This document shows positions 4,100-49,520 of a stretch of 64,000 nt of DNA, in pieces. The notes beneath the pieces were generated by a model. The model did not search any database, was not told the DNA's origin, and saw only the letters and a list, made by a program, of their open reading frames with translations. The stretch lies in contig KZ537993.1 of NCBI GenBank assembly GCA_000934665.2, forward strand, positions 124,001-188,000, given 5' to 3'. The position numbers and the translations under genes are program-made. Origin of the DNA: Catajapyx aquilonaris (Eukaryota). The stretch's first letter is position 1; each line of letters begins with the position of its first letter.

Positions 4100-4201
4100 C
4101 TGTAAAAATTTTAATAGAAAAATCCAATGATAAAAATGCACATGTTACCGGCGCACTGATTTAAACAGACACACAAAAAAAAAATTCGGGGTGACACGTA
4201 C

Positions 4202-5856: not shown

Positions 5857-6001
5857 CATCTCGGCTCATTCCGACAGCGATGCACTTCTTGAGGCGGCAG
5901 TACTGGCACCGGTTCCGGTTGATCCTGAGGATGGAGCACTGCTGGTTCTTGGTACACGGCCGGTACTGTATCTTCTGCTGGATGCTCCGGCGGAAGAACC
6001 C
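5857..6001 (-). CDS. E75: E75 second zinc-finger exon
   Basis: ttgcag|GGG...GAT G|gtgagt; 145 nt; [48 protein letters not shown]. Confidence 0.97.
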
Positions 6002-6022
6002 CTGCAAGTCAGATCCGCACAT
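6002..6022 (-). CDS. E75: Possible E75B-like N-terminus, contiguous with the second zinc-finger exon (one-finger isoform)
   Basis: In-frame ATG gives [13 protein letters not shown], with an in-frame stop further upstream. The acceptor at 6002 has almost no polypyrimidine tract. Confidence 0.45.
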
Positions 6023-9000
6023 GTCATCCACACATTGTACACACAACACAGTGTCACACGCAATGCACTCTCTTCAGCGCGCCGATGCAGACTGTGCGAG
6101 AGAACGTGGTGCCGCTGCCAGCACCGGCAGACCGTAGCGGTACCTCGAGGCGGCCTTGTTTATTTTCAGCGGTCGCTGACCCACTTAAGGGCCGTTGACC
6201 CTACTCCGAGGGCCCGCTCCCGATTCCCTCCTCCTAGGCGCTGCCGAGCGGCCGAAAGGGAAAGTACAACCGATGGAGATTTTTCGTGACGCAATGCGTT
6301 AGTTATCAGCGCCGCCGCCTGGCCCATTACGGTAACCTCCCTCGTGGAATACAACAGAAAAGAAAAAAAGAAAAGAAGTAGGTCTCGCACCCTCTCACTG
6401 CCCATCGGAGGCCACGTGGTTTGGGACAGGACGTTGCCCCCATGCTTTACTCCTACACCTATCGGAGGAGCACGCCTTATCATTTTCTGGAATAGTGCGC
6501 TACTTGGCTCGCGACTAGATTAGAAATAGAATGCTCCAGAAAATCCGATATGAACTATCGGCCAAATATTTTGTGGACACTTTCCGGAACTAAGTATGCA
6601 AACGATAAATATTTGCGATATTGCAGGCTTCATTAAATAGTGATCCGGATGTGTCGTAATGGTGCGAAAGACAAAGGTCAGGGCGAGTACTTCTCCTCTC
6701 GCTGAGCGATGCAAGTGGATCAGTAACCGACTCAGCTTGAGGTCATCCACCCCTAGGTAGGTCACTATCGGTCGTTCACCTCGGCGCGCAAAAAGGCAGC
6801 CTTGCCGCGGCTTCCTCCTCACTTTTTCCCACTCTACATTACAGTTGGCGAATCCTGTGCAATTACGTGTGCCCCGAATTTTTGCATACATTTTGTCGGA
6901 CATGTCTACCAAATATTTACATTGCACATTTTTTTACCCACAAAATTTAAGGTCGATAACGGCCACTCTGCCACAATAACAACGTAACTCATCGACCACA
7001 AATTGTTTACTTATGAATCAGCCGGTTCTAAATAAGTCAACATCAGCTTAGAAAATATTTATATCTAATTTTCAATATTAGCAGCCCCGTTACTCTGAAC
7101 ATCCAACATATTTAAAAAATCACTACATCATGCACACTATTTACCTATCTGAAATTTTCATTCAATTTTGAGCACTTAAGAGTTTCAGTGTAATTATGCC
7201 AATTCATAATTACAGCCTGCACAAGGTCGTTGTACACGCCTATCTGTTACTTAACAAATCCAGTCTTGAACCCAGTTTCGTGTGACCCAAGTACGTGACC
7301 GGACCTGGCCGGCCGAAGACCAACGTAACTTCCCTAGATCTAATCCGTTGACAAGCGATTTCCATACCACGCCTGCTAGACTGATATATGGCCGAGTCCA
7401 TTCACTTGTGCAAGCCTATCGCATACTATATCGTATATTTTATACGCCTTTTTATCCTTCTCGCGCTCCACTTACATCCGTTTCACCTGGCTCAACATGC
7501 AGATAACCCAGGGCTCTGATAGGATATCGCCGCCTATTTCCATACGTGAAATCGGATTTGGTCCATTTGTGTCAATACTGACGTCGCAAATATTGACGTC
7601 AGGTAAATGTCGACGACCCGATCACTGACCTCTCCCATTCCCCTCAGTTGACCGACTAGCACGATAGTGCTTAATCAGCCATAATTGGCAAACTGTACGG
7701 GAAATGTGGGTGGGAGGTCGGGATCGGTGGGTGGGTGGGTGGGAGTCATAGTCACGGAAGGTATAAAATAGTCTGGCAATAACCCTAGCGGCTATGGATG
7801 GTTATTTTTTTTTCTCGCAAAAAGGTGAACGACCAGGTTGTTTTCCCAATTATGGTACAGATCCGTACCGATGACCTCCTCCTCCCCACCTCCCAACCAG
7901 GTTGTTGAGCCGATTTTCGCGCGAATACATTACCCCGCCCAAATATCGCAACAAAGGGAGTGACGTCAAAATTTTTGACAAGTCCTCACAAAAGAGGTGT
8001 CGTCCGAGGTCGCAAGAGATTATTGTCCCTTCATTTTTTGCATCCTGTTGTTTTTTTTACACGGTGCAACTAACCCTTTATCGCGCCCCGACTTTTATTT
8101 TTAAATTATATTAAATAGTGTCCACTGTTACCAACCTCTTCGATAGTCAGTAGGTCACCATGCCTGCCAGCAGCTCTGGGCAAGGTCGCTACCAGTTTCA
8201 TAACCTGATGTTCAGTGATTCACGATTGCTTTTTTATGCCCCTGTGGGCTCCGTCGGATGTGCTCAATTTTGCCCCCGCCCCCGCCTCCCCCACAGTAGG
8301 TCATTTCACTTAAGCCCCGTGGCCAGCCCCGGTGACCTCATCGTTAAAAAGTCGGTAACCCTGACTTCGATTGGTTTAATGTCCCCAAGGTTGTTTCCAC
8401 CACCAATCGCCAACCGGCCTCTATACGCATGCCCTCTCGCACCATTATAATACGCGTATAGAACACACACAAAAAAGTGAGAGTGGGTGAATGACCGCCG
8501 GTTCTAGTACCAATGTGTTTTTACCCTCAGGTTGAGCGCTGGTATGACGCAAGCGCATTTTCAAGTGAAAGTTTGGTATTGCGGCACGCCGAAGAGATGT
8601 GCATAACATGACATAACGAGTGCATTCAAGCCGGTCCGCATTTTCGTCTTTATGGGGCCCATTCCTTGGGGGGACTCACAACAAAATTCTCCAGATAACA
8701 ATAATGTCGACCCCAGTCTAGTAACCCTGCCGGGAGACAAACAGCGGTCATTGGCAGTCAGCAACCGGCCTTCAACCCAGTCAGGGGGGAAAAGGCGGGC
8801 ACGAGTTCTCTCCCAAAAGGCCTTGACTCGCCCACAGAGTGCCAAGGGGGGTTAAAGGAACCCCGGGGCAGGACGAGGGGTGGGCGCAATTACAAAACGA
8901 TCAAAATATGACGTCTATTTGTCCCACGACTACACCAAGAATGAAATTGCCAAGAAGCCAATAAAGCTGCAAAGTGAATGAAATATCGAAGTAATATTAA

Positions 9001-9150
9001 TAGAATTAATAATAAAAATTACCGGTCCCTATGGGTATGTACACTGCACCAGCTTTATCTATGCAAAAATATTTCATGCCCTTAGCGAAATATGCGTATG
9101 GAATTTCCAGTGTACTGTATGAACCGGGCTATCCTGGCGAGTATGCCACC

Positions 9151-9164
9151 GGGTTGAATGCACT
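9151..9164. promoter_or_regulatory. hsp27-type EcRE-like element
   Basis: GGGTTGAATGCACT versus the Drosophila hsp27 EcRE core GGGTTCAATGCACT, one mismatch. Confidence 0.45.
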
Positions 9165-9187
9165 TCCGCTCGTCGCCGGGTTATTTA

Positions 9188-9328
<141 letters not shown>

Positions 9329-9782
9329 TCAGCACCGGGTGTCACATCAATAGGCACAATGTAACACTATAGTAATGACCAATCATCACTACCTATCTTA
9401 ACATTATTAACCACCACCGCCATTGTCAGCAATGTTCCGGGCCAACCGTCCGGATCACTTTCACTGGGTCATCTAATCCGTCAGCACCGGAATCCGGCGA
9501 CCAGTAAGCAAGTCCCACCCCCCTAATCCGCCACTTAGGATTGGTGGAGCCCTACCCCCCTCTGCACCCCTACGTCATTGGGACATTGACCTGGATTCGA
9601 TCGTCCTCCGGGTCGTAGTCCCCCCGCCGGTATGACCCACGTGCTAAGTAGCATGTGACCCCCAAAAATGGTCGATATTTCGGGGGTGGAAGCCGGGCCT
9701 TTGACCAGGGATATACCCGGCAGTGCAAAGCCCTCTCTCCCCCTCTCTAGCTCTCTTCTCCGGGGATCGATCGGCGTCCTCC

Positions 9783-9795
9783 GGTTCAATGACCA
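9783..9795. promoter_or_regulatory. EcRE-like IR1 in the first intron of the E75A-like unit
   Basis: GGTTCA-A-TGACCA, one mismatch to consensus. Confidence 0.5.
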
Positions 9796-9856
9796 CCCCC
9801 CCGGAGTCCGTCGACACAACACCCCCTCTTTCCCCCCCTCTAGTACAGCGACATAC

Positions 9857-9953
9857 CTATATTGAGATCTGGTTCCCGCCGATCGTGGTGTTCGACCTGC
9901 GGAGGCGGCGGCATGCTGCGCAACATTTGTAGGTCCTTGTCGTTCAAAATCAT
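9857..9953 (-). CDS. E75: E75A-like alternative first coding exon
   Basis: ATG at 9953; MILNDKDLQMLRSMPPPPQVEHHDRREPDLNI plus G|gtatgt (phase 1), giving REPDLNIEFDGTTV. Resembles the REPxLxI-EFDG end of E75A N-termini. Confidence 0.88.
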
Positions 9954-12240
9954 GCTACTAAACAACCACCACACTGCACTCCGCACTGTCCTGTGTCCAC
10001 TACGCGACTTCCAAAACTGGTCTGCCCCAAGCCCGAGTTCTCAGCTCCCTTCCACCCCGAAAAAAAAAAAAATATATAGAGGAACCAAGGCTCCGGCCTT
10101 GGTTGGGGTTTTTAGTAATGGACCGAGGGGAGGGAAGACCCTGTCGAAGGTCACCGGTGACTTGGGCCTCCAATGTGGGTTGGATAAGGAGCACACCACG
10201 CACAGGACACGGCCGGTCTCCAAAGAGAGTGAAAGTTCATCTAAACTGGATGAGAATGAGGATGGGACATGTACCTGGACCGGGTGGAGGGGGGGAGCGG
10301 GTTTCAGTGTTGAGGGAGGGTGGGGGGGAGGGTGAAGGTCCTATCGACCAATGCCAGGCGTGGCTGCCGGGCCTGAGCCAATCGGAGGGCAGGTTGCAAT
10401 CCGGGCGGCAGATGCTACGGGCTTTCCCATTGGTCACCGGCGTTTTTTCGGGGTCCCCCCCCCTCCCCCCCACCTCGCGCCCAAAAGTAACCCCTCCACA
10501 CCTTGGGAGGGTTCAACGTACCTGGCTTCCCAAACCTTGACTGACTTACCTACACTGGTCTATCCGGAGTACAGATTGATGGCAACTACCGGAAATTTTT
10601 GTATCTTTGTCGCGAGTACCTGAGGTATGGTGCAAGTGCAATGTCCTACCACCCACAATGGCGTGGCATTGCCCACAACCACCTCCCATCTCATTTAAGC
10701 CCATTCCCCTCCTTCACCTTCCAGGTGGCCAAATTCCACCTGGGCCCAGGCCATTGAACTCCTGAGGAACCTCCCCCCCCCCCCACCCCCAAAGAATTGA
10801 ACAAACTCAACCCCTTTTACCACCTTGCCCCAGAAATAGACAATTCTTCCAACCCCTTTAGCCCCCTGTAAATATACGTTTTACAAGGTGGCATGGGGAA
10901 TCACTATACAAAAAGGGAAACAACCCTAGAAAATTTTTTGGGTGCAAGTTCGGTGCCCTCGACCAAGGCCGTGTTGCTTATTATCCTGCGTAACTAGAAC
11001 ACCTTTTTGGGAGTGGAAAATAGTGAGACAAACGAAAGGGAACATTGTTACTGTCTTTGCCAAAAAATCCGTTGGCACAGTAATAAAAAGGGAGAGTTTT
11101 TTTTTAAAAAAAAGTTTAAATTTCGGAAGGGGGGTTGTTACTGGTGAAATGTGGGGCTGGTTGGTTTGTGTGAAGCAGAAGGACAGGACGAGCCTAAATG
11201 TCCGGCCCTGAACCCATGACAAGAGGGCAACGATTCACCCACAAGAGGGGGGGGGATCATGCCTGGAAATAGGTTTTTGGGCAGGTTGGGAAATGTCGAT
11301 TGCTGGCCCGGGGCCCGATTAGATTTTGAGGTGGTTTTTCGTGTGGGTGGGGGGTACAAAACTCTGGGTTTTTGGGAGGCAATTAACCCAACGGGTTCAC
11401 GGTTGAGAAACACTGCCGGGAGGGGGGGGGGTATTTTTGGAGCACCTCAGAGTGCCTGTATTGCGTTCATGTCGCAAGTACACCAAATTTCGCGGTCTAT
11501 ACAGCCGGTGACAGACATCCTTAATAATTACCGGATCAAAATATTATGAAAAACATTTCATAACTACGGAAGGTTCCGTGCCTGTCATTCAATCCTATTT
11601 TTAGGATCAAAAATTTCTCAAACCCCTTTTCCTATAATAGTACGTTCTTTCCCTCCCCATTTTTTTGATCCGGGCGCAAAAGACGTGAAAGCCTGTCATC
11701 ATCACGTCTTTTCTTCTTCCTCTTCAGCAGAAAGGGATAGTGGGTGAAAGCTATTTCCACCGCTGGATCCCCCCCCCCCCCTCCTAATGGCCCACCCCAT
11801 CCGGTTTCAAGGTCAGGCCTTGGGGAGTTGGGCCCTGACCCTGGGCCCTCCCCCACCCCTACTCCCGAAACATCACAAAAATTTCCCCAACTCTTCGGAG
11901 ACTCATCGTCCTTCTATGTATAGGGGAGGGGAAAAGCCCACACTCCGTTTCAATCATCTACCCCCTGGGTGCCATGTGACCCTAGACTCCTAAATCCCTA
12001 CCCCCCTCAAGGTCTTAAGACCCGAATTTGGACACTCGGGTGAAGGACCGGAGGAGACGAACTAGTCAAAAAGGTCAACGATCTATTTCAAAATTCAGAT
12101 TTATTTTTTGTAGTCCCCCAGCTCCCTATTTCTGATGCGACAAAGGATGTTCCCTACATTTGTTTTTCCAATCCCGAATAATAAAAAAAATCCCGAATTT
12201 AAAAATAAGCCAGCGCATTCCCCCCCTTTGTTTCCAGACC

Positions 12241-12253
12241 CGGTCACTGACCT
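12241..12253. promoter_or_regulatory. EcRE-like IR1 upstream of the E75A-like exon
   Basis: CGGTCA-C-TGACCT, one mismatch to consensus. Confidence 0.5.
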
Positions 12254-15200
12254 AGGTTACAGACAGAATCTCCCCAAATACTGAAGCATTCTCCAACTGA
12301 CGGCTCCCAAAATAGGTTTTCCACCCTGGGCCATGCAAGATGAGCCCACCCCCTCCCCCCTCCCCCCTGAAAATAAGAAGGGGGAAAGTAATCACGAACT
12401 TTTGACGCTTTCCACCTGTTCGAGTTTTTTGTGCTCCGTATTATTAACCAGCCTATAACGGGAGCACCTCCCCCCCNCCCAATATGTTTAGTACATTTTG
12501 GCACCGTGGTATCGATATGTCAATTTATTTCCGGGGCAGGACATTTTGGAGTTCAAAGGACTGGGAGCTTAAGCAAGGTGTTGAGAAAGGGGTTTGAGGT
12601 TGGTGACCGGTGGCGTCCCGTTTTCCACGGGGTAAGAAGCAAAAGAGTAAAAGAAGAGAGGAGGGGAAGAGACGAAGAAGAATAAGTAAGAAGGGAAGGA
12701 ACTGGATCTTGCAGCCCGTAAAAGGCGGGCAGGGGCAGCGAACTTTCCCCGCTTGGCCGTGGCCACAAAGCGGGTCAATGTCAGGCGGCGCCATACGGCC
12801 ACTCTGGACGTTCACCCACTCCCTGGGCTGGCTGGCTGGATGGGCTCAACACACATAAGCGCACCTCCCATTTCCTTCGCCTTCATGCCAACTTGGCCAC
12901 AAAGAGATGGGGGTTTTACAGGCGCCTGGGATGCTAGACTTGGGTTTATACGTTGCGTCACTTTGCATGGAGCTGGAGGGGGGTGTATAGACTCACATAA
13001 TAGACTCTGCATAATGGAGTAATTGGACGTGACGGTCAAACTATTCGCAACATATTCAACTATTTTTCTGCAATATATCGGATATTAAATGCAACAAATT
13101 AGGGCTATTTTAATGCAATATAACAACAATGCAGCTCTTCTAAAACCAATGTGTCGGGTCGGTAATATCAACGGAAATAATACAGTTTATCCCGTAATTG
13201 TACGTGTAGAGCCACAACAATGGGCTATAAAACCCTACAAGCCTACATCAATGAGAAATCCCATATAATGTATCACAGATATTACCCGTCATTTTCGCCT
13301 TTTTCTTAATGCGGAAAGTGAAAATGTAGAGCTACAGTTATTATGGAGAGTATGCATAGCAGATTTCACTCTTACTTTTCGTTCTTCAAATCAAGAGAAA
13401 ATATCTGATTCTGAAAGCTTCTGTAAATCAGATATTTTTCTTAATTTGTGATCATGCAACAGAGTGTAATTGGCAATGTGTCAGTAGGGTGGTGTTCAAG
13501 TGCTAATTGAAATTTAACATTCTCAATATTTTTTTTTGTAGCCCACCTGCAAGGGACATGCACGAACAAGATAGCCAAGAATGGCATGGCCGATGCTATA
13601 ATGACCATCCCCATAAAAATGAGCCAGATACGGATTTTGACCTCGGGCGATCATTGCCTTTTTCATGTAGTGGGTCATCTTGAGTCAGTTACCCCGAATG
13701 GGCCAGGATCACAACCGGAAGCCCGTACCCTAATCTCGCATCAGTTTATGTAAATAAGTCACACTTTATAAAAAGTGCAGGTGTTTATTGCATCGCTTAA
13801 CTCGTGGCAGGTCAGAGACCCAAACTCATTTTTTTCTCTCCCCCAACCTCCCACCATCTTGTACAGTGGGTGGACAAACTTCCGCACGTTTTGTAGCCTA
13901 CTGCAAATTAGCACCAGCCAACCATGAACCCTCATATAGGCTACATGCATCAAGTACTGTAGCAATTTGGATTCAATCTCAAAGACCTGTTTACACTAGG
14001 CATTTTACACACAATCGCTAGACTAGTTTCCCAAGGAATAGGCGGTTGGAAGTAATGGGGGGGGGGTTATACAAGTCGGTCAAGTTTTTGCTCGCATTCT
14101 GCTTCTCATCCTTGATGGCCTCCAGAGAAGAAGTGTCAGTGACATTGAACCTTCTCCTCCTTCACCACAATGCGGAACGGCGTTGAACTCTACATACGTC
14201 TCTTAGTTCTTTTCGTGAGTCATCAGAGTTTTAGCTTTGGGATTACGAGGGGGGCGGGATACTGACCCCCCCCCCCCCTCAAAAAAAGTGGAAAAAAGAA
14301 ATGGTGGCCGATCGATTGTGGGTGAATGTACCCCTGGCGTGGAGTTTGCAGAGATCTTTCACCTTTTATAGAGGGTGGGATGGCGTGGTGGTGGATATAT
14401 ATATATATATGACGGGTGGGTATATCGATTTGACGCCGTCGCCATTTTGGGCGGGAAAAGTTCACTGCCACCGACGCCTGCGACGCTTGGGGACGTCACG
14501 GGGAATGTCGTGGAATGCCGAAAGCCAGTCGACGCCACTGGCGTAGTTGTACGCCACTACTAGCACGTAGACCCCGTTCAATGTCGGCGAACTATAGCTG
14601 GAATCGTCAATGGAAGGAAAGTTCTGGATAATAGTGGCACGACCATGATATCACTACATTTTGATGGCTAATAAATTTTTTGTTTCGTATTAGAGCAGGT
14701 GCCTATCTTCTTGAAAGATTTATTTACTTTTTTTTAAAATTTAATTAATTAATGCAACCTCCTTGCACGAAGGTGTTGAACCACCTAAATGCTTTCCCAG
14801 TCCATTCCACACAAAATAATCTGGTGCCTCTGTGGACCGGATTACTCTGTCTAGCAGAACAGGCATGAGCATGTCCAACTGAAAGCTCCTCAAAACGAAC
14901 TCTAATGACCACCATAGAAGGCTTGTGAACGGCAGTAAATACCACTGAACTCCAGTTAAAACGCCAGTGGCACCGTGAAAGAGAAAATTACTGGCTCCCC
15001 CCCCCCCCTCCCCCCCAGCAGAGGATGGGCAGCGACCTTCAAGGTCTTCCGCCAGTTGAGGGCACTCAACCCACCAGGTGGAACACCTCGGAGGACTACA
15101 ACCCTGCATGTTCAAATTAGGGCAATAACAGGACTTGATGTCGCAACCGGGGTGGTCACTCTTCTCCTACATGTGGGCTACACGTATGGGCTACTGAATA

Positions 15201-18200
15201 GGTGGTGATGGTCAAGTGTGGGGGGAATTTCCGTGTATTGAGGTGGCGAGTATTGAAGGAGGCAGATGGGGTAGGGGTAAAAGTAAGGAGGGGTTCATCC
15301 CATTTTGGGGTTGGCGTGTCGAGACTGGATATTGTGGCTGCCAAGTTCCCGTTGGACAGACACATCATGGCTGTCCCCCTACTGATGGCTGAAGGTGGGG
15401 GGTTGGGGTGTAAATCTCTCCTTTTGAAAGGGTGAACGAACCCACAGAACAAAAGTGTATCTCGCGAACCCGAATTGTGACGTCTTTTTACCTGCACGAA
15501 CATGTCACACCTTCCGACATAGCCATGATTGTGAATAATGCTGGAATGAAATAAACGTATGGTAATTAGGCGTCGACAGGCCTATCGAATGACAGCAAGA
15601 TATATCAGCCGGCTTCTAGGATTACAACAATTAGGAATCTCATTTGATATCCCACGTGTTACTACCTTTTTGATGACACGTGACAATAGACGTAAGCTAT
15701 CAATGAAAAAAATAAATATCAGGTCACATGCATTTATCAATGACATTTACTACAAGTAGTTGCATCAAAATGCAAGCAGATAATTAAATCAACGACTTCA
15801 GTTGCCAGTAGCTGATTTCCCACGGATTTACATCATGCATGCAAGTAGTATGCGGGGGTTAAGTGCTGATGTAACATCTCCGCGGAGGAAAAAAAAATCT
15901 GTCAAGTTGTTGCTGTTCAGTATTACGACGTGAGGAGAAAATATTATGCATTCACTTTCACTCGGGAAGGTCAAGAAGGCGGGCATTTTAATCACACCCC
16001 CAGTCTCTTATGCGGTTTGAGGTCAAATGGTCATTCACACCTGGTGAGATCACATATTACAACATCGGCGCCTATATTATAGCCACTTTGTATAATTATG
16101 TTATAATAAATTAACTCAGCCCAATTTTCATTTTTTTTAAACGAGTCTGTACGGTCAGGCCAATCACTCCCATCCGAAATTGCAATAGGACACGCGACGT
16201 ATCTGAAATTAGAGTGTCAGTGACCCTCCTAGTGAATCCATATATCCATTTTCACGCGCCCATTCATTCCGTCCATGACCTTTCCCCCTCCTTCCCCTCC
16301 TGGTACCGCAAGTATGTGAGCGTATGTGCGAGGAATAAGACACACTGCTAGGACCTCTTTTCCTACTTTTTCGGGTTCCTAACCCAACCGGACCGGGGAG
16401 AGTGATTGTTGGCCTGGGTGATAATGTAGGTGGAGCTCCAGCAACAGCAGCAGCAGGGAATAGGTGGTGGTCGGTAACGGTACTTGTAAAAGGGGTGGGT
16501 GGTAGGTGGGATCTCCATCAGCCCGTGGCCGGCCAACTGTTCACACACGCACGCATGCCTCGTATTCCATGCCTCCGGAAGCACAGGAAACTCTCCCCTG
16601 AGAGGAATGACTCCGTGACGTCACAACTGCCCTCCTACATTTATATTATCACCTCTTCCTATTTCGTCACCAGGGAGGGCGAAAGGGGTTATCGACACGG
16701 ATCTCATTTCGGATGGAGGGAACCTTATTCTAGGGGGGGAGGTCAGGGGGATGCGGTGACCCCGATTGGGGAGGACCCAAAAATTGACCTTTGCTAATCG
16801 CCCATTTTCTGCCCGGGGTTCGCCTGAAAAGAGTCCTTGGCCTTCCGCAATCCTCCAGATCTCCCACTTTTCTCGCACGAAATATGCTTACCCGAACCCC
16901 CGGTTTACTTTTCCCACCGGTTTTGACGACTGGTTTCATCGAGATGCCAATATATTCGAGTTCCCCCCCCCCTCTCCTCACTCTGTTCTTTCGGGGCCAA
17001 ACAAGGGCACCCACTGCTTTGCCCATAGTTTTCGCACGCACCAGGAATCTAGAAGATGACCAGTTTTGGGTGCCGACCTCGCCACGGGAAACATTTCTGG
17101 GAGGCCATTGGAGTGTCTGACTGCCAAAGAACCGGGAAGAGTGTGGCATAAGAAGGCTCCCTCAGGAGGTCATTGTCCCCTGGTGGAACAACCACGACGG
17201 CCGCAGGGTGTTTACCTACCAGCTCACTTTCGGTGTGCGCTTCTTGGTTCAAGGGAATTCAGTCACTCTCACGGGGGCCAAGGCTCAAATTCTCGGTAGG
17301 CGGTCATATACCCGCCCAATTTACGTCAATGTCAGGGTATTGACGTCGATGACCCTACCCCCGAATAGGGTGACCTCATGTAAGGGGGTCAATCGGTTGC
17401 GCAAGCCCTTGGCGGGCCAACCCGTTTCCTTCCGCGCCTACCTGTTGGCTGGACCGAAGCTTCGCAATGCTTTTGAGGACGTCGACCCAACGGTACATAG
17501 CTGCAGTGGCGCGGCCTTATACATGGAAAGTTGCGTCACGCGTCGGGCGAACGACCCTCCACAACAGCCATTACAGATACCCCCTCATCGCGAGCTCATG
17601 CTGATCTACTGGAGGGCCGGAACGGGATGACCTTTCAGACTGAGCTAAATATGGGTGAGCCTCGCATTGTTTTGCAACACAGGACGGGACCTAAATACCT
17701 ACCCGATGCGAGTTTCGCAATGGGGAAAAAAACGTTCGACCGAAAAATATGCAGCGTCTGGAAGTGTGTGGCTTATGGGTCATGGGAGTGCACCGAGGTC
17801 CTTCCCCTCCACCTCAAATCTTTGATCTCAAACTCGATCGATACCTGTGGGCGTGCATGTATAGCCAAGGCTCTAAGGGGTTATTCACCCACCTTTTAAC
17901 CCCCCCATTCCCTACCCCCCTCTCCTCACCCAACTTCCAAAAACTCCTCCCCTATTTTCATGGGGGTCTAACTGTCCACGGTCATCTACCCCCGCACAAG
18001 AGGCAATGGTTTCCAGGCGAAGCAGCGCACACTTTTCTTGCCCAAAGACCAAGGACCCAAAAATGGTGGGAGGGAAAGGTTCTCGACCCATCTGGTCACA
18101 CTGTCTGTGCATGGCGGGGGTTGGCTCACATGGCCTCCCAAAACGGTACCTCAGCCCATTTTCTACTCGACGCAAGTAGCGCAACCAGATTTAATTGAGA

Positions 18201-21200
18201 AACCAGCTGCACTACAAGTATGCAGTCACGTATACAACTATTCAATAGGAGGAAACCATTGTTGATGGGAAATGTGTTTACAGCACACACGAATTAAATT
18301 ATTTTCTAACAATCATTTCCATACGCACTAATACTGCCATTTATGATAATAAACACCTTTATGTGCCACTCCAGATGTGGGCATGCCATAGCTGCAATTT
18401 GCCCGCATACATGAATAAGGAAGTGTGGAAACATGTGATTCACGCTCCATCCTATTCAATCGGCTTATCCATAACAAGCGAAGGTCAGTGACACATGGCA
18501 GGCAAAAAGGCAAAAAAAAGGGAGATTCTGCAGTTAACGGTATGAAGAATGGGAGGCGGCCGCGGATGTTGGCAAAAACAGCCATCATCGCCGCGAGACA
18601 TTGTCCACGGTGACCTCAGAACCGTTAAAGCTCACGCTCGGCTTGTAGTATTTCGGGGAAAACTGACGTTCCAAATCACGACCACATGCGTCATGGCGGG
18701 TACTGAGGTCATTAGCACGGGAAAATTCCAAATTTTTCATACTCTTAAAAAATTTTGTTTAAAAAAGAAAAATGCTACGGTTGACCTAGGTTGACTTACA
18801 CCTAGTTTGGAAATATGTCAGAAAAGTTGGGAAGCCTTCACTTTCGCCACATTTATTACGCCTCGACAACCGTCACGGTCACTGTTATTTGGCAAAACTG
18901 TTCTCTCAACGATGCTGTTGGCCCCAATCCTTAAAGATTCTTGCACTGTTTCACCGGCACAGTATACACACAACACCTGCATTGTTTACAGGAACGTGTT
19001 TGTATTGCCTGCCAATATGTGCAAGTGCACTGCATCATTTCATTTTTAACTTTTTTACTCATTTCATTATTTTATTACTGACTCTTGTCAGACTGGCCGT
19101 TCTTCCTCAGCCGTTTATAACTAATATTTATAAATATAAAGATAATAAACATGAAGTTACTTTTGACACTTTTAGTTGGGAGCATAATTATAGTCCACAA
19201 TGCTACCGAAGTGACAAGCAATTTCCGGCTGCCCAAAAATGATGGCCCATGTCGCCCTCAATTTCCCAAAAACCCGCGCCTGAAAATAGGTCCTCACAGC
19301 GGCAGCACGGAGTCGGTTGGGTTTTCTGGACTCTTCCAATCCCGCTATTTGTCCTGGATCCATTAGCTGAAAAATCTAGAAGTCGCGGTCACCCCGAGGA
19401 AAAGTCGTTACACATTTCTCGCCGCTTTTGTGCCGTCCATTACACAACCCATCCTGAAATGACCTGGAGAGCCAGGTCGTGCGAAATTCTCCGAATCGCG
19501 AATGAATGTTTCATGTGGGTAGTTGACCAGGCAATAGTAGGTGTAAGTGACCCCCCCGGGCTGTCTCCTTCCGACTCTTTTTTTTTCGGGGTCAATGGCT
19601 GGGTGTAGACCCCGCATAAAACGTCTAGCCAGAATCGACTAACAGCTATAGGCGTCCGCGCGGTAGCCTGACGATGACCCCGAACGACCCCCCGTCCAGG
19701 TGTATATGACAAAAGACCCGGACCTTTGCAGGTTGGTGGTCTCCGGACCTATCTCTCTCTCTATAGACATGTCACCTAAATATCCCGCCTCCTTCAAAAC
19801 TAATCGCTTTGCCTCCCACGGGAGTGACCTCTAGCGGGTCTCCCATTCGAATCGGTCACTTTTGGTAGCAGCCATGGGGGTCACAAATACTCCAAGCAGA
19901 TGGGCCAAATCCCCTGTACTGTTAGCCCCAAAGCGTGCTCCCTTATAGTATTCCACTCAAATTGAGGGTGATGCACCCTTAAGTACCTGCACCGTAACCG
20001 GAATATTTGTCTCTCCAAGATTTCACTTCCTGAATTGTTATCAACTCTTCCTGTTCGGTCGTCTTGTCCATAATTTGTTTCGCGTGCCTCCTTTTTTTGT
20101 CTGGCTCTGAAAACATGACCGAGTTCAATGCTCCAAGTTAGTCGGTCGCTGCCTCCATTTGTAGGAAATTCTACCGGGGAGGGGAAGGCGGGGGAGGAGC
20201 TGTAAATATCACCCTTGCTAATACTAGAGCCAATAACCTGTCCAATATGGATTTCGCAAATCGCAAAAATTCCACATGACAAATTAATAGTGCCATTGTG
20301 TTTCGTGCCATATTTACCACCGAGCAACAATACAGAGGGCAAAGACCTAGATCCTTACATCCTATTCGGAAGATTGTGGATACCTAACATGAATAATAAT
20401 CCTGGATATGCGCCATTTTAGTTCGCTTATTTTTTCCTCCCATCCCCTCCTCCCCCCATTCCCTACAGGGGATGTCGTTCCTCCCGAGCTCTTATCCGTC
20501 CCAAACACAAAAGTACTGTTAGGAGTGAGTGGCCTCTCGTCGGTTCAACGCCCAGCACACTACATGCCAGGCAGGCAGGCAGCGGCCTTGGGAGGTCTGC
20601 ACTCTTGGGGTTGCCCACATACCGACCACATATGCTCGCCTTTAAAAATGGCGACCGAGTAAGCTTTAAACGCCTTTAAATTAAAACCGCGCCCGATTAA
20701 ATAACTGGACGATGACTCATAACTAACCAGATTGGTGTTACTACATCTTTGCGTGAACTTTCCTTTTGCTGGCAAAATCCTGACCTGAATGTGGGTCGTC
20801 GACCCCATGTACGAGTCTGTTGGAACAAACTACCCCACCACCTCCATCTTACCGAGCCCCCTTTTCCACAGTTTCGTTTTCAAGGTTGAGTTTACTTTCA
20901 TATGCGGGCTGCTGGCTTGCTGGGCCATAGTCCCGGGGGCTCCACTTACGTACTACTCTACTACTAACTTCTTCGGGCACGCCCTACTTACAGGGCAAAG
21001 ACCCCGCAAGACTTGAGAGATCGTATAATGTTGCCTTTCACGTCCATTTTGTAACTCCGGAGCTTGGAATTTGACGCCCTCTAGCCCCCTTCGGAGATAG
21101 TTGGGGGGTGTCGATTGTGCAACTATGGAGGGAGATTTTGATATTGCTCTGCTCTTGACTCGCGTAATGTCCGTGGCTAGATTTGGGTGTTGGGAAAGGA

Positions 21201-21759
21201 GGAAGGGATGATGATGATGATGATGATGATGAATGCTGGTCGATTTGTAGGCCAAAAGTGGTGGGGAAGGTTGGAAAACGGTATTTTGGATGAAATGAGG
21301 TGGTTATGTAGGGTAAGTCAATAGGATTGGGAGAGATGATGGAAGATTGATTTGGAGGGAGCAATTTAATATGCTCCCATCATTTCAGTTCGTACAACCG
21401 GCTCTTAGACAATGTTGTATCAGTTATCAGAGCAAATAAAGGGAAAAGGTTTCAGATTAATATTATGGATGTTATGGGTAATATGAGATTTTCTCTTTCT
21501 TGCTGCTACACACAGACCTTTGTTCTTGCAAATATTTGCCTATTGGATTACACAATTGTTGCATTTCAGTTGCATTGGGAGTTTTATATCCCATTGTTAA
21601 CATCATAAAGCCAGTCTGATGGAATTTTGTGTGTCTGTATAACGAGTGAGCACAATAACCTTTTCAATATTGAATCATTGTGGATAATAATAGGACAGAA
21701 TGTAGTCCTATATTGTTATTTCAAGCGACAACTCTATAGTTGCACACAGATTATACCGG

Positions 21760-21821
<62 letters not shown>
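21760..21821. repeat. (AAT)n microsatellite
   Basis: About 20 perfect AAT units. Confidence 0.95.
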
Positions 21822-21829
<8 letters not shown>

Positions 21830-23584
21830 ATAGTTCGTCAAGCACAGATCAACTATTTCTCGCAGAAAATTCTAAATTTCAGTCATTATTGGCTCATGAA
21901 ATGACATGAATTTGATAAACACGTGGTATACGAAATATTGATGCGATAAGAAGGCCATGCATTTTTCTAATTAGCCTTGCATCAATTTCTTATGAAATTT
22001 GCTCAAAAATGTCATCATCCCCACAACCATTATGACATCTTGATAAAACGGACAGCGATAGTTCAAAATTACATAAAGATTGTGACTGAAAAATCGTTCA
22101 CTGATTCACACTACAAACTCCGAGGCATACGGCCAACAAATTGCAATCCAAAATTATTTACCACACAATACCGCACCATTGCTTGCAATCACCTCTGATC
22201 TGCATGCAACCGTACTAATTAACCGGTTTCATTCATTACACAACCGGCATAGACACCGCATTGCGCAATCGCGAATTGAAAAGCGTTTAATTCATACCGC
22301 CATGTTTGTGCAAAGAACAAAAAAGAAATAAATAAAAAAGGAGCGAGGGGTGTAACCAGTGTGAATAGTAGAAAGGGCCACGACCCACTTAAAGGTCGTC
22401 TACCTCCGTGGAAGCCTCCTTTTTTCTGTCTTACAACCCTCCCCCCTCCTTCCCCCCTACCCCGCCAAAACCAAGGCCAGCTTTACTTTCATCCATAACA
22501 AACGGTGCTGCACCCCCGCGGTGAACTCGCGCACTTCAGCGAATGACCCACATAGTGGGCATTCACCTGGCAGACCTCCTTTTTTTTTCTCTATCCATTT
22601 CGCACGTAACCGCTGGCGTCACGAGTGAAGGGAGGGAGGGTTATGACAGAACACTAGAGTTGTATCACGTACCCTTTTATGCGACAGGTGTAAGTGATTC
22701 AGGGAATTGTGACGTCAGGACGGTTCTTGCTGCCTCATAACGGAATTAGTTATGTTATTTTCTGGGAACATATTAATTCGTGTGGGCCACGAAAAGGTCA
22801 CGAACCTTTTGAACTGTGGTATGGTATTGTTGTGGGTGCTGGGTTGCTTTTATGTCATTAGGGCTGGTTTTATGAACGCTAATTATTTCATAACGCCAGA
22901 TTGCGTATGGTGAACATAAGTGGATATTTTCCTAATGAGACTTGTTAATTTTGCTGGACTAAAATGTGCAAATTCCACGAGTTAAATTTAACGCATAGCT
23001 CAATATCTGAGCATGGGATTTTTTTAAAAAACATGCAGTATAGCTATTCGCACACATTTAAAAAAGGTGTTTACGTACATTCATATTAAGAGTGTGCAAT
23101 ATTTCTTACAAACTGCCACAATTACATATTTTGATTTGCTCTTACTTCTTTTAAAAATTTCACATATTTCAACAGCAGTAGGTCATTACAATGCCAATGA
23201 CCCACTGTAAAAGGCGTTGAACCGCAATTTTCCTACCAACATCACCCCAATTAAAAACTTCACCTGCTCTACCATTACATCCACCGCAATTGCGTAACTC
23301 TCCCCACATTGACTCCCTCCCCTCCTGCATATGTGGTGCCTTTGATCACGTAACTCACATCCGCGCGCACACTTACGGGAATGTGGTCCGACGTTCGAGA
23401 GGTGGGAAAAACAAGGCTGCGAGCGCGCGCTCATGCCCTCCCGCCATCTACCGGCGCTTCTCCCAAACATTCGCGCATCAAGTTCGATCAACCGCCCACA
23501 GATGGCGCATCCGCTGAGCCGGCCGCGGCGCGACATTTACGTCATCTGAGACCGAACCACTTACGTACTAGTAGTAACACTCAC

Positions 23585-23635
23585 CGATGACCCTCTTCCC
23601 ACAATCCCATGGCAGACTCCACAAATGGGGCTTAC
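23585..23635 (-). CDS. E75: 51-nt in-frame E75 cassette microexon / recursive-splice exon
   Basis: TACTAAT branch-like motif, T-rich tract, then tag|GTAAGC...ATCG|gtgagt. Phase 1-1 with no stop: (G)KPHLWSLPWDCGKRVI(E). Confidence 0.8.
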
Positions 23636-26600
23636 CTATAAGAAAAAAATAACAATAATTAGTACATCTCGTTATTTTTACGAAAATGGTAGGGTACCAT
23701 TCAGTACACTTCACACACCGAAGTTCAAGGAACGTCTTATCTGACTTAACTGCACGCGACGTTAAGCTATTTTTTTCTGTTGTTCTGTTTCCACGAGGTG
23801 ATGATGACCTTTAGAGCTGCACAGTACATGTGAACTTCCTCGTAAGTCGTTCCCAGTACCAGCACATTGTTACACTATTCCGTTCTTTTAAGCTCGCTTT
23901 CGTTGATTGTGTCCGGAGTGAGGGGCCGGATTATGGAGCGAAAATTCGAAAATTCCCTCGGCAATTTTTTTTTGCCACGAGTTTGCGCAGTGTGTAAGTC
24001 GGGCGGTCGACGACCCTACGACATAAGTAGAACGTGGAGTCCTTGAGTACTCCGGCCTGCAAAATGCGAAGGGGGACGAATTCTGAGGGGGAAAGTGAGT
24101 TCTACTAAATGATCTATCAATTGTAACGTAACCGCAAGGACCAGGTTCACATATGGACCCAAACAATTCGGGTGGACTATTATAACGGTTAATATTTTTT
24201 AACATAATAGGCTTTATATTAAGCCATCCATAAGATATATGTAACAAAACATTGCCCAATGATGGCTGAAGGCTCATAAAAATATGCAAAATATGTTGTT
24301 GGATTTGCCTATATGTAAACACACTTAAATACAATTTTTGCACCCGCCCAATATAGCCCATATTGCACGTAGCCCAGTACACACGCGGTCACAGACCCAA
24401 AAACTGGGCTCAAAAAACTCGAATGAAATTTTTTCGAGTCCACAATGGCCTGAGGTGAATATCCCGTTGCACAAGCCCCTTACCTCCCCACACTCGATTT
24501 TCACTCTCCTTCAAGGCTACACGCTTTTCCTTCACAAGTCTTGACCCCCTTGGCGGTCGTTTCCCTCCCGAGCTAAAGACACTGAAAGCGAAGCCGTTTT
24601 TTTTTTTTAACTTTACTTTTACTAACCACCCCTCCTTCATGGTCATAACACATTCGCTTTTTTTTAAAGGTCAGATCTCACTTTTCAAGATCCTCTCTAT
24701 AGGAATGGGTCCACTCTCACTCGCATTTTTGGATGGTTTAGAAAGCCGGTTTACCTGGCAGGAGTCCTACAGGCGCTTCTTCCTGACCCATGAGTATGGT
24801 CTCCGATATGTCACTTTGGTATCACAGCACTTGGCTCCGACTATCAGGCACGAGTCACCCAGAAGCTCCCATCCGATCAGGGAAGTGTTTCGGAAATGTC
24901 CGTTTTTGCACCCCCATGTCTTCTTGTCTTAACCCCCCCCTCCCACCCTTCCCTGCATGTGGGGTGGGGGTGTGACCGCGTGCTTGTTATCTGCGAGTTG
25001 CAACGGAGACTGGACCCCGATTTAACCGAGGGGTGAATGACCCTCCGGTTTGGAACTAGAACCTGCCACCCTCCCCATCCAACCCCCTGTCGACGTCACA
25101 AGCCAAGCGCGCCATCGATCCTCATCTCGCGCCCTAGGGTGGGGGTGGGGTGAAATAGTCTATGGGGGGGATTTGGACTAGCACATTCGCACACTTCCCC
25201 ATCCCTCCAAAAAGGGGTGAATGAACCCATCTACACTCGAATCGCCAATTTTGTCCAATATTGGCAAAAAAATTTGCATAATTGCACAGGTGCGAGTAAT
25301 ATCACATACTGGATCGGGTGTAAATTTATTAAAACCTACACATTTTTAATGTCCCTATTATAACCAGCTATTCCAAATTCGCGTTGATTAATCCACACAT
25401 CGGTACCTCTAAATATGTGACCTAATTGGCAGGCCCGGATAGCCCAAATAGTGCGGTGCAATAACCTCGCCCGACCCGTCTGCGCAAGTGCATGGGGGCC
25501 GCCCCCTACCTATGCGGGGGCGGCGATTATTCGGGGGAGGACCACCCCAATCTCACCTCATGTTTGAAAATACTAACTAACCACATCTTCCGGGGCTCGT
25601 TATCGAAAAAATAACCCCCTCACGTCCGTCTAACCTTATCCCTCGCGGTCTGTATATTGCGAAAGAGTAAACAAGTCAGCATAGTTCGTCCCTGACATCT
25701 CTGGAGCATTTATCGGCCACTAGCATACTTGGAGAGTGTTGAACCCAAGAGCTTTGCTTCTCTTTTTTTTTCTTTCTTTGTTAATGTTATCAGGCTGGCT
25801 CATCGGCCTAGAAATCGGAGAGACTTATCTCCATATTTTGCCGGGTTAAGTAACGCTATTGACCTGGATGGCAAACAAATTAAAACGGCTGTCCTTATGT
25901 GAAAGGGTGGGTGGGAGTTGGGTGGAGGGGAAGAACTAGTCATTTTAATCTTTAGGATTAGCGCAAGTTCGTTCCAAGTTATAGACTTGTGGCCTGAATC
26001 ATCGGTTTGTTTTGCAAGCGATTAGAGCACGGTGATAGGAAGGGTTCGACAGTCTCTAAGAGGGTTTGGAGAACAGGGCAAAGATTTCTGGAAAATTAAA
26101 AGGTGTGTGAACAGTGCCGTTAAATTTGGCGATATGATTGTGCGCAGTAAAGCCGAATAAGTGGGTGGAATGAGTTACGCAAAAATAAACCGGCTCAAAT
26201 GAAGTCATCAAAGTCATGTAGGCCTACATTTTGAGAAAGCGAGTCGTAAACAGAATTTCCCCTCAAGGCGCGTCATGCCCATCAGGATTTCATTACAATA
26301 GTTGACCTTTGTTACTCTATTAGTAAAATATTGCAGACAGGTATTGTCTGGAAGATTATCACTACATTAGCCGATTAGCGTATTGAATGACATGTTATTA
26401 TCCTTCTAACCATGTTTCAAGTGCTAGCTAGCAACGTTTGTATAGCTTACACTTTCATGAGACCACAGCATAAAAATACAATGTGAAAGGTCAGCCTTTT
26501 CTATTTTCTACATTTCTTGTTTACCATTACAGAACTCACTTATTCAGTAGTACCTAGAAGTGTTAAAGGGCTGTTATCTATTTCTGACCGATATCAAATC

Positions 26601-30067: not shown

Positions 30068-30173
30068 CTGCTAACACACGTCCTAGCAGCTGCTCGTCAC
30101 TGTCCTGCACAGGCACCGCTTCAGGTGAAGGCGACGTCTCCACAGACGCCGGTTTGTAGTCCTTAACTGTCAT
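30068..30173 (-). CDS. E75: E75 alternative first coding exon ('LLGRVLA' type)
   Basis: ATG at 30173; MTVKDYKPASVETSPSPEAVPVQDSDEQLLGRVLA plus G|gtagat (phase 1), in frame with EFDGTTV. Confidence 0.7.
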
Positions 30174-40090: not shown

Positions 40091-41825
40091 GCGCTGCAGT
40101 TGATGTACAGTAGTAGCTATAGCCCTGTACAGTCTAACAGGCTTTTATTGACGGCGCGCAGCCTGTAACTCAGGGTCTGCAGCCGACCCTCCTGTTTCAG
40201 CTAGTGACCTTGACCCTGTAACCCTCCACCCCCCAACTCCCCGCACCATCCAACCCACTCCCTCCTCCCCGTCGCCCTATAGAACGAGCAGAAACCTGCT
40301 GCTCACCCTCAGCTTCTTACTCCCGATCGATGCTTTCCATAGACGTAGTACTAATGGTAACCATGTACTACAATTAGCGCCCTAAAACGGCCACTAATGC
40401 GCCAATATTCAAACGTTAAACAAATGCCAACCACTTAATTACCGACCCACATTTTGTCTCATTTTCAAGCTTAACACACTGTGCGTCAATATCCACCTTA
40501 GCATTGCATAACAAGCTGCATCACCCTTTATGCAAATTCAGTCTTCAGTGGAGCCAATGGAATGAATGGGAATCGCAGGGTAGCCTGAGGTCATGCCTCA
40601 GCCTGCAATGCAGGCAACCCTGCCAGACAAGAGAGGCACTTGGGTTGCCTGCTACCCAGGATGAACCTTTCCAAGGCTATGTTGCATTATAGTCAATCGG
40701 AGGATGACATCCGGATGGACTAGCGTGCATTCTAGTGCTATTACCGGGCCTGGCAGAGGGTATTGGCGTGGGTGGCCGTACCATCGCCTGCTTACAAATG
40801 ATCCCGATTTGGCCACTTTTTTAAGTAGTTCTTCTAGGGGTTATTAAATGCCAGGGAGAGAAGGATCATGCCCTTCAACTGAGCCTTTTGGGTGTCGTTT
40901 TTCAGTCTGCTGAATTAACCCGATTAATGACGCACCACGCTTTCCCTATTCACAAGCCCTTGTAATTAGCTTGTATGGAACTCGAGCTTCTAATAGCAAA
41001 GGTCGGATCCGGTAGTTGACATCTGCTTGAATTGGCTGAGAAATTAGCAGACAAATTGTGCACAAAATGTCACGCGCTACACTGTATGCTTCGGATATAA
41101 CTATGTAAATTGTATACCGCTGGTTGGTTTTTCACCTTACGGAATGGAATATGTTCCAGGCTATTATTGAACTTGCTATGCATTAAACAACGGTATTAAC
41201 CTTGATTGTGGCGTGCGCATGGAAGCGATTCAGGGTCACTTCCATTGCCTTTGTGTTTAGCCCTGACTCGAATCCAACAAAATTTCGGGGTATCCCATCA
41301 TCCAATTCTGGGAACATAGCAGCGCAGCCGCCCCTTCCGGGAATCAGATTCCTCTGCGGGCTCCAATCCAAAATCTGACCCATATTTTAAGGATTGTAAA
41401 CTACCGGTCGGATAGGACGGAAAGGTTGGTAGGCCTGGCAGGATTGAAGGGCTGACCTTCCCGGAGGGCGCAGAAGAACCGGAATGCTCGACCTTCAAGG
41501 ACAGGGCGGGCGGTTGAAAGGGAAAGCTTTTTTGGGGGTTGTCGGGGTGGCTGCGGACCACCTTTTTTTGTGATAGGGGGCAACGTTGCCCTCCGGAGTT
41601 GGTCAGCCTCAACCGCCATTATTTGCACGGGAGAATCATGGAAGCGGCAAAAAAAATTTACTTTGGCATTAGATCCGCACGAATCGCTTGACCAAGGTCA
41701 AGGTCACTGACTAGTAATCCCGGAAATGAGCAACAATGCGCTCTTATTCCGTTGCTTAACAACATATAACACAGGACCTTCTAACCCTCCAGTCCGTTCG
41801 TGTCCTATCATTTATTCTCCTGATC

Positions 41826-42815
41826 ATGAGCTGTTCAAAAATCAACTTGGATGAGCTAGTAGCCCAACACTACGCCGTCACCCCCTTACGGGTGGCCTTC
41901 CAGGACTACTACAGCAAGGACCTTAACTACGAGCCCGAGGTCACCCTGGAAGTCCCTCACAACACCACTCATGACAAGTTGAGGGCCATTGTGGCTGAGA
42001 AGCTCTGCGTAGACCTCTTTCACCTCCAGTTCTACCGATGCAAAAGAGGCAAGTGCGAACCCGAGCTCAACCCAGTGCCCTTCAAATACCCAGGCAGCGT
42101 CGAAGACCTGGTAGGCTTCTTGAACCCGGAGGCGACCAAGTACATGTTCTACAACATTGTTCCGTTGCGGTTCGACGAGCAGCACGGAGACTACAAGTTC
42201 CGCTGTACCTGGGTGAGCATGGACCTGAAGAATTCCAGGAACTTGGTCTTGAGGCTGCCACAGCATGCCACTGTTAACGACGTCCTATGCCTGGTGCGTA
42301 AGGAGATGTGCTTGCCAAAATGCAAGGTCCTCAGGCTTCTGGAGGTGGTCGGCGACAACATTTACACCGAACGACCCGAACACATCACCTTGAGTTTGTT
42401 GGAAACCATGTGCCTGAGGACATACCGCGTCGAGGAGGTGCCCGAGAGCCAGCAGGAGCTAGCAGATAATGAGTTTCTCATACCTGTCGGGCACTTTTTC
42501 ATGAATGAGAAATGTGAAATGGTTACATTCGGAACGCCATTTTTCCTGATGGTTAGAGTCGGGGAGACAGTGTCTATGCTTGCAGAGAAGTTGCTGACAC
42601 TGCTTGCGGAGATGGAGGTCAACCCTGGCAATTACACGTTCCATCTGGTCCAGCGGAGAAAGGTGAGAATGATTCTGAAGGCCAATTTCCAAGTGCGGCC
42701 ATATGATTTCAACTGGTGCAACAGCACCGACGGACACAAAGTACCGATGCGGACTTGGTTGGGCTTGCAGCATGTGAGGCTGAGCAAATTGTACAAACCA
42801 GGAGCAGCACAGTAA
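41826..42815 (+). CDS. USP7 C-terminal ubiquitin-like domain (about UBL3-5)-only protein, copy 1; intronless, nested antisense in the E75 intron
   Basis: 329-aa ORF with LQFYR, FRCTW, LRLLEV, YRVEEVP, IPVGHF, FGTPF and WLGLQH, colinear with USP7 LQFFK/FKCIW/LRLLEI/FRIEEIP/VTVAHF/FGIPF/WLGLDH. AATAAA at 42835-42840. Confidence 0.88.
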   Translation: MSCSKINLDELVAQHYAVTPLRVAFQDYYSKDLNYEPEVTLEVPHNTTHDKLRAIVAEKLCVDLFHLQFYRCKRGKCEPELNPVPFKYPGSVEDLVGFLNPEATKYMFYNIVPLRFDEQHGDYKFRCTWVSMDLKNSRNLVLRLPQHATVNDVLCLVRKEMCLPKCKVLRLLEVVGDNIYTERPEHITLSLLETMCLRTYRVEEVPESQQELADNEFLIPVGHFFMNEKCEMVTFGTPFFLMVRVGETVSMLAEKLLTLLAEMEVNPGNYTFHLVQRRKVRMILKANFQVRPYDFNWCNSTDGHKVPMRTWLGLQHVRLSKLYKPGAAQ

Positions 42816-43027
42816 ATGTGACAATGCTGTGAACAATAAATTATTAACAGCCTCTATCGTCTATAATGTAGCGTGTATATAGTACTCATCTACCTCATTA
42901 TCTTGTCATTCATCAGCAGTTAGGTATTACTAGGGTGACAACAACTTGAGGTTGCATTGTTTTCCAATACGGAATTTCAACAAGCAATCACCAAGACTAC
43001 GTAGTGTTCGCACATTATTATTCGAAA

Positions 43028-43549: not shown

Positions 43550-43801
43550 GTAATCTGCTTTTGTGTACCTATTTGTATACTCCCCAAATAATTTGACTTC
43601 TTAACACTTGAAATATCTCCCAATACTTTTGGGTCAGTAACTTTAAAAAAATTCTCAGAAAATTTACCCTAAATCAGTAAAAATGGCCAGTTGAGGAAAA
43701 ACGTCAGTCAAAATAAGTGATGCTATTTCAAGAGTGATATAAGGCCACTCAAAATAATTTACGGCCCATGACATGGATCAACATGTCCCATATATACGCA
43801 G

Positions 43802-49402: not shown

Positions 49403-49520
49403 CTAAATCTGGTATTGAGCTAGATGGTTCCTCATGGTCCTTGTCCTTATCCAGCTTAGACTTTGGAGGTGGAGGTGGAGGTGGCCGCATGACCATCGAA
49501 GTTGTAGATGACACCGCCAT
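49403..49520 (-). CDS. E75: E75C-like distal first coding exon
   Basis: ATG at 49520 after an in-frame stop; MAVSSTTSMVMRPPPPPPPKSKLDKDKDHEEPSSSIPDL plus G|gtaaga (phase 1). MRPPPPP...EEPSSSIPDL is the known E75C-type motif. Confidence 0.9.

Follow-up and report, generated by a model that had tools for sequence, protein, structure and literature searches.

A candidate recursive-splicing exon in the 40-kb intron that precedes the first zinc-finger exon of Catajapyx aquilonaris E75

How is an intron of 40 kb removed from the transcript of a hormone-responsive gene, in one step or in segments? The question is raised by the E75 gene of Catajapyx aquilonaris, a nuclear receptor gene of the NR1D3 (Eip75B) type, most of which lies on the minus strand of the stretch analyzed here, hereafter the window (64,000 nt; contig KZ537993.1 of assembly GCA_000934665.2, positions 124,001 to 188,000). 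E75 is an early ecdysone-response gene, and its long introns are thought to help time the response. The long intron in the window measures 40,099 nt (49402-9304, minus strand), and its sense strand carries a candidate site at which an acceptor AG is followed at once by a donor, as at the ratchet points of recursive splicing, a process well documented in Drosophila. All sequence features by which a Drosophila-type ratchet point and its recursive-splicing exon (RS-exon) are recognized are present at this candidate site. We see about an even chance that it is a real RS-exon of the Drosophila type, mostly skipped, which would allow the intron preceding the zinc-finger exon to be spliced out in two stages.

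The site consists of the following elements, in the order of transcription:

23658..23664, minus strand: TACTAAT, branch-point-like (read directly from the sequence)
23636..23657, minus strand: T-rich polypyrimidine tract (23657-23638) and acceptor AG (23637-23636)
23630..23635, minus strand: ratchet-point donor GTAAGC, abutting the acceptor AG (read directly)
23585..23635, minus strand: candidate RS-exon of 51 nt, phase 1-1, without stop (sequence and frame check)
23579..23584, minus strand: RS-exon donor TCG|GTGAGT (read directly; U1 duplex -11.3 kcal/mol)
23559..23564, minus strand: second donor-like GTAAGT, 21 nt beyond the RS-exon donor (weak; U1 duplex -6.8 kcal/mol)

The branch-type A is located at 23659, i.e., at -24 relative to the exon start, and the site sequence contains no AG between it and the acceptor. 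The acceptor tract (...tttttttcttatag) has T at both -5 and -6, and pyrimidines account for 80% of the 20 nt scored. Acceptor and donor are juxtaposed as AG|GTAAGC at 23637-23630, in accordance with the consensus AG|GTRAG(T) for adjoining 3' and 5' splice sites. With one upstream nucleotide (G) and two downstream ones (AG) added, the candidate RS-exon translates as GKPHLWSLPWDCGKRVI-E with 0 stops, and its inclusion would place GKPHLWSLPWDCGKRVI ahead of EFDGTTVLC. Splicing at the weak donor-like GTAAGT would carry an in-frame TAG into the message. A preliminary description of this DNA had reported TACTAAT, the pyrimidine tract, AG|GTAAGC and a second donor G|GTGAGT 51 nt further on, all of which were found again by direct reading of the minus strand; its statement that the exon is of phase 1-1, stop-free and able to insert a peptide before the DNA-binding domain (DBD) was borne out by the frame check.

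Two other identities of the site were considered and rejected. A repeat or non-coding RNA origin was dismissed: a segment of 650 nt surrounding the site occurs only once in the window, the window yielded no Rfam family, and the site is free of tandem repeats. An alternative first coding exon was rejected because the 80-codon open frame running through the site lacks a methionine. No Pfam domains were detected in the open reading frames (ORFs) that span the site or lie shortly after it, including one of 116 codons downstream of the candidate exon (23536-23186, minus strand), which yielded no Pfam match. Just 3' of the candidate exon (23450-23560, minus strand), the intron becomes GC- and CpG-rich (gtcgcgccgcggccggctcagcgg...).

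Which exons could such a site connect? The parts of the gene on either side of it are:

49520-49403, 9303-9215, 6001-5857, 4099-3858, 2385-2167, 1901-1727 and 1642-1, minus strand: exons of the E75 model
49403..49520, minus strand: 'A-type' first coding exon (MAVSST...HEEPSSSIPDL), ending ...TTAG, phase 1
30068..30173, minus strand: alternative first coding exon (MTVKDYK...LLGRVLA; the 'MTV' exon), ending ...GCAG, phase 1
9215..9303, minus strand: DBD exon 1 with the first zinc finger, forming the last acceptor of the 40.1-kb intron, preceded by tttttgcag

The exon model is stop-free, comprises 876 residues and continues past the window start; Pfam detected the ligand-binding domain in two of its exons. 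The closest database match of the last exon was the E75 protein of Thermobia (63%), and the top 25 full-length matches were all hymenopteran, with an identity of approximately 60-65%. An E75 protein of the same species was not found among the database proteins of 305-973 aa or 974-2780 aa. The first coding exons end with ...GATTTAG|gtaaga (A-type, at 49403) and ...TTAGCAG|gtagat (MTV, at 30068). Both ends recur in many insect E75 proteins, and relatives join both of them directly to the DBD exon. Reading of the exon ends showed that, at the sequence level, joining either TTAG or GCAG to 23635 regenerates AG|GTAAGC, as had been proposed. The candidate site divides the intron into 25,767 and 14,281 nt by arithmetic from the coordinates, which also agrees with the earlier division of the 40.1-kb intron into about 25.8 and 14.3 kb.

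Donor strength was expressed as a crude U1-duplex energy. The donor rebuilt at the 23635 junction would read TAG|GTAAGC after the A-type exon (-9.4 kcal/mol) and CAG|GTAAGC after the MTV exon (-11.0 kcal/mol), values that equal or exceed those of the native donors of both upstream exons. The constitutive donors of the window E75 (n=5) range from -9.2 to -11.5 kcal/mol, and the rebuilt donors as well as the distal donor of the RS-exon (-11.3 kcal/mol) lie inside this range. Because both candidate donors are within the constitutive range, the outcome of a competition between them is not predictable from these energies.

How does the site compare with known recursive splicing? According to Joseph & Lai 2021 (PMC8605326), a Drosophila ratchet point consists of an acceptor and a donor in tandem within a long intron, and its recognition requires a short cryptic RS-exon, about 50 nt in length and equipped with a donor of its own; the ratchet motif is conserved and the body of the RS-exon poorly so. 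The tandem acceptor|donor is common to the window site and the Drosophila ratchet points with cryptic RS-exons (Burnette 2005; Duff 2015; Joseph 2018; Pai 2018; Joseph & Lai 2021). As in these, a pyrimidine tract with TT at -5/-6 precedes AG|GTAAG deep in an intron of more than 40 kb, the exon of about 50 nt is closed by its own donor, and the upstream exons end in AG, so that the donor is rebuilt. TT at -5/-6 was reported for 196/197 Drosophila ratchet points vs 43.76% of all introns in the Duff et al. preprint, and supplementary file 1 of Pai et al. 2018 contains many sites alike in look, with GTAAGC donors and TAG acceptors. Unlike the Drosophila examples, the present site belongs to another insect lineage and is known here from its sequence alone.

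Could the arrangement have arisen by chance? AGGTRAG occurs at 20 positions in the window, both strands considered, and the candidate site alone reaches 75% pyrimidines over the preceding 20 nt (its value is 80%); regarding the sense strand of the intron, an acceptor-like tract precedes one of seven such motifs. Accepting any AG|GT as the donor raises the number of sense-strand sites with such a tract to ten, with a consensus donor only at the candidate site. As a chance model, 300 dinucleotide-preserving shuffles of the 40,099-nt intron were searched for AGGTRAG preceded by at least 80% pyrimidines; 14 of the 300 contained one or more (mean 0.047 per shuffle). GTRAGT occurs 15 times in the intron, which corresponds to p=0.023 for finding one 30-90 nt downstream (a span of 61 nt), and CTRAY within the 20-nt branch window has p=0.065, while TACTAAY is present only twice in the 40,099 nt. 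In the phase required, 36% of the 51-nt intron windows are stop-free and 1/3 of all lengths preserve the frame, giving a prior of approximately 0.12 (0.36 x 1/3); frame and stop-freedom therefore add little against chance. Multiplication of the shuffle frequency by the probability of the distal donor gives an estimated joint expectation of approximately 1e-3 or less per intron, a product that assumes independence.

These figures bear directly on the possibility that the site is a chance pseudo-exon, the motifs being ignored by the spliceosome or used as noise only. An acceptor|donor juxtaposition as good as the observed one did appear in 14/300 shuffles, and the site was chosen post hoc from 64 kb. 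The addition of a distal donor at 51 nt (p=0.023) and of TACTAAT at -24, however, lowers the expectation to the value of about 1e-3 or below given above, and the site is located in a long intron, on its sense strand, while the fly orthologue of the gene undergoes recursive splicing. The candidate site thus looks like more than chance, and we regard a pseudo-exon as unlikely, if still to be reckoned with.

A second ratchet-like site in the intron, the runner-up by these measures, was observed at 32964 (minus strand), between the A-type exon and the MTV exon; its sequence, tttttttttctctctctcag|GTGAAC (cag|GTGAAC), combines 85% pyrimidines with a poor donor.

Is there a precedent in the same gene? 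Eip75B, listed as FBgn0000568 in a nuclear-receptor table (PMC1847479), occupies six rows in supplementary file 1 of Pai et al. 2018, which places recursive sites in a 65-kb Eip75B intron (3L:17986096-18051336, minus strand). The sites from four of these rows are:

18032387, minus strand: sawtooth, not high-confidence
18026810, minus strand: junction reads, high-confidence
18014771, minus strand: sawtooth, high-confidence
18008627, minus strand: junction reads, high-confidence, also in Duff et al.

As far as these rows go, the same family member (E75/NR1D3) has in Drosophila a very long intron that is removed in segments, as is proposed here for the window E75. The motifs listed are of the same form as the window site, e.g., ...CTACTTTCAG|GTAAGT and ...CCATTCCAG|GTGAGT. 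The fly intron has at least four sites in 65 kb in this file, whereas the window has one convincing site in 40 kb plus the weak one at 32964. The mechanism suggested for the window is accordingly not new: it is of a known kind, and the fly orthologue is already on record as recursively spliced. Literature searches retrieved no article on recursive splicing or a microexon in E75, although the PDF supplements to Pai et al. and those to the Duff preprint, which were outside the search, may contain further information on Eip75B; in the supplements of PMC8605326 Eip75B is not mentioned. The articles on recursive splicing considered here concern Drosophila and mammals, and no search was aimed at other insects.

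A second precedent comes from Hymenoptera. The junction between first coding exon and DBD exon was surveyed in the 264 of 415 fetched E75 proteins that contain the first zinc finger, a survey in which out-of-frame cassettes are invisible. Departures from ...E-FDG(x)TVL were found in 6/264 proteins. Three have no insert: P0084 is N-terminally cut, P0125 has another first exon, ending in K, and P0273 (a tardigrade) has D for E. The remaining three (3/264) carry an insert at the junction. In Megachile rotundata, X4 and X3 have GKSNPAFWHVNQ (33 nt) in place of E and are otherwise equal to X6 and X5, respectively, so that the same cassette follows two first exons, ending in LLGRVLA (X4) and SSIPDL (X3). 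In Dinoponera quadriceps, X1 has GKSDMPVDQLAVMPESPSK (54 nt) in place of E and is otherwise equal to X3. When residues 50-92 of P0015, the Megachile cassette region, served as a query, no further carriers were found (self-match 91 bits vs a DBD-only background of at most 49 bits).

Junction (alternative first exon | cassette | FDGTTVLC) and phase of these cassettes are the same as those of the window exon. Their lengths are 33 and 54 nt as compared with 51 nt, and they are known from the proteins of database gene models alone. GKS opens both hymenopteran cassettes, as expected of a phase-1 G|GTAAGTC, and is all that the two share; all three peptides, that of the window included, share only GK(S), which is forced by the donor motif, and are otherwise unrelated. 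In RS-exons the donor motif is characteristically conserved while the exon body drifts (PMC8605326).

An ordinary cassette microexon, handled by conventional exon skipping, with a GTAAGC start that is coincidental and never serves as a donor, would also account for part of these observations: the acceptor and the distal donor are both strong, the exon is in frame, and the behavior of the hymenopteran cassettes is equally expected from a conventional cassette. Exons that open directly with a near-consensus donor are rare, however, as the single acceptor-like tract among the seven sense-strand AGGTRAG motifs shows, and the GK(S) start of both hymenopteran cassettes would turn the coincidence into a threefold one. 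Drosophila reporters in which the ratchet donor was mutated showed, moreover, that exons of this type are processed by resplicing (PMC8605326). We consider a conventional cassette very unlikely.

Is the 17-residue peptide itself of use? The preliminary description had seen in the site both a ratchet point and a regulated switch, the latter producing a functional E75 isoform with a W/C-containing insert of 17 residues before the first zinc finger, in the manner of Ubx mI/mII. The 51-nt exons of Ubx (Hatton, Subramaniam & Lopez 1998; described in PMC8605326) are in frame, start with a donor consensus and are kept or respliced out, and the window exon is likewise 51 nt long, in frame and donor-initial. 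That Ubx microexons are retained or removed by resplicing, and that ratchet points occur in long introns, as the preliminary description states, agrees with PMC8605326. Expressed RS-exons do exist in Drosophila (PMC8605326); their number is given as fewer than 50, the 51-nt Ubx exons included. A switch is further favored by the exon being 51 nt long, in frame and stop-free, by two donors of similar strength, which make both outcomes plausible, and by the in-frame cassettes annotated at the same junction in Megachile (after two first exons) and Dinoponera.

Other evidence speaks against a switch. In functional expressed RS-exons, e.g., Ubx m1 and sm, deep conservation extends to the wobble positions (PMC8605326), and the Ubx microexons are ultraconserved at all 51 positions and abundantly included (PMC8605326), unlike the window exon, the body of which shows no detectable conservation among the E75 proteins compared. 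The expectation that other arthropod E75 proteins would contain a similar insert was not borne out: no peptide resembling the 17-aa insert was found in the 264 DBD-bearing proteins, only three of these have any insert, and the three peptides now known share nothing but the GK(S) that the donor motif imposes. The prior of approximately 0.12 makes the open frame of the window exon unremarkable, and the in-frame state of the hymenopteran cassettes is no evidence, because only in-frame ones are visible in a protein database. The ratchet part of the earlier proposal is therefore retained on account of the sequence features, the chance figures, the Eip75B sites and the hymenopteran cassettes, while the switch part, faced with unrelated peptides, inserts in 3/264 proteins and that prior, finds no support; taken together, the two parts make a reading that we judge quite unlikely.

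The reading preferred here remains an RS-exon that would mostly be skipped. The steps of splicing in C. aquilonaris, all of which we infer from the sequence, would be as follows. The 51-nt unit would be recognized by exon definition, between TACTAAT, T-tract and AG at 23636 on one side and the donor GTGAGT at 23584 on the other. Either first exon (ending at 49403 or 30068) would then be spliced to 23635, and the new junction would rebuild the donor (T/C)AG|GTAAGC. In most transcripts the rebuilt donor would be joined to the acceptor at 9304/9303, the 51 nt being lost with the second intron segment, and the resulting messenger RNA would encode ...L/A-E-FDGTT, matching other insects. Removal of the 40.1-kb intron would thus take two steps, of 25.8 (or 6.4) kb and then of 14.3 kb. 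Splicing from the distal donor would instead yield a minor in-frame isoform that is 17 residues longer, which we regard as a by-product rather than a conserved protein switch.

Several points weigh against a mostly skipped RS-exon. Whether an RS-exon is skipped or included depends on competition between the donors, on exonic elements and perhaps on the exon junction complex (PMC8605326). By the crude U1-duplex measure, the distal donor (-11.3 kcal/mol) matches or surpasses the rebuilt donor (-9.4/-11.0 kcal/mol), so a model of donor competition would favor inclusion over skipping. The exon preserves the frame, unlike the cryptic RS-exons of the fly, which are 'generally out of frame' (PMC8605326). 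The evidence from the cassettes is at the protein level, where GK is compatible with GTAAG and no proof of it (Gly GGN, Lys AAR). Finally, the 65-kb fly intron presumably ends at the first zinc-finger exon, and its homology with the window intron is likewise an assumption of ours.

Might the element be older than this lineage? One may conceive of an ancient RS-exon before the first zinc-finger exon of insect E75 in general, common to the lineage of C. aquilonaris, to Hymenoptera (as the GKS cassettes) and perhaps to Diptera (Eip75B), in which the core would be kept while the body drifts, and in which occasional use of the distal donor would yield a lineage-specific peptide beside the DBD. We put this forward tentatively, as an unlikely extension that still deserves mention. 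If it holds, recursive splicing would serve the ecdysone cascade as a conserved checkpoint of timing or fidelity and, in addition, supply new receptor isoforms. Should the window site itself be used, stepwise removal of the E75 intron would predate the flies, and the GKS-starting isoforms of bee and ant could be explained as leakage from a ratchet exon.

The one public sequencing run listed for 1-9400 (X1) contains 0.25 of the words of that region. Assembled against 3800-23799, it gave a single contig of 4,721 nt, which covers only 4399-4202 and 4099-3857; it bears on neither reading of the microexon because it stops short of the DBD exons and of the microexon itself. The contig contains an alternative 5' exon (4202-4399, minus strand) that is spliced to the hinge exon at 4099, with 102 nt skipped (4100-4201, GT..AG), and reads on into the next exon. 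Joined to 4099, this exon encodes MSDTDDLPILKGILKGDCTYRYHNAP|VRFGRVPKREKAK, i.e., an E75 isoform without either zinc finger. The N-terminus of isoform X4 of Dinoponera (P0414), MGDELPILKGILNGVVNYHNAP, is similar to this form, and a DBD-less E75 isoform thus seems to be conserved.

Further features of the window lie outside the E75 exons. Antisense to E75 and inside its intron, three long ORFs (41760-42815, 42950-43591 and 43772-44170, plus strand) match only C-terminal parts of USP7 (USP7_ICP0_bdg and USP7_C2, twice in tandem); the region 41760-44170 looks like an intronless duplicated partial USP7-like gene or a retrocopy. Upstream of E75, a 273-codon ORF (61074-61895, minus strand) contains TPR repeats of the nephrocystin-3/kinesin-light-chain type (TPR_12 and TPR_10, with TPR_NPHP3 below the cut-off). 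Near-identical ORF translations on opposite strands (51455-51673, minus, and 52090-52302, plus; 51157-51441, plus, and 52299-52541, minus) indicate an inverted repeat with arms of approximately 500 nt (51157-51673 and 52090-52541), perhaps the ends of a transposon. The window closes (about 63450-64000) with a T homopolymer of more than 500 nt on the plus strand, possibly an assembly artefact; the GC content is 28% and the AT skew -0.38.

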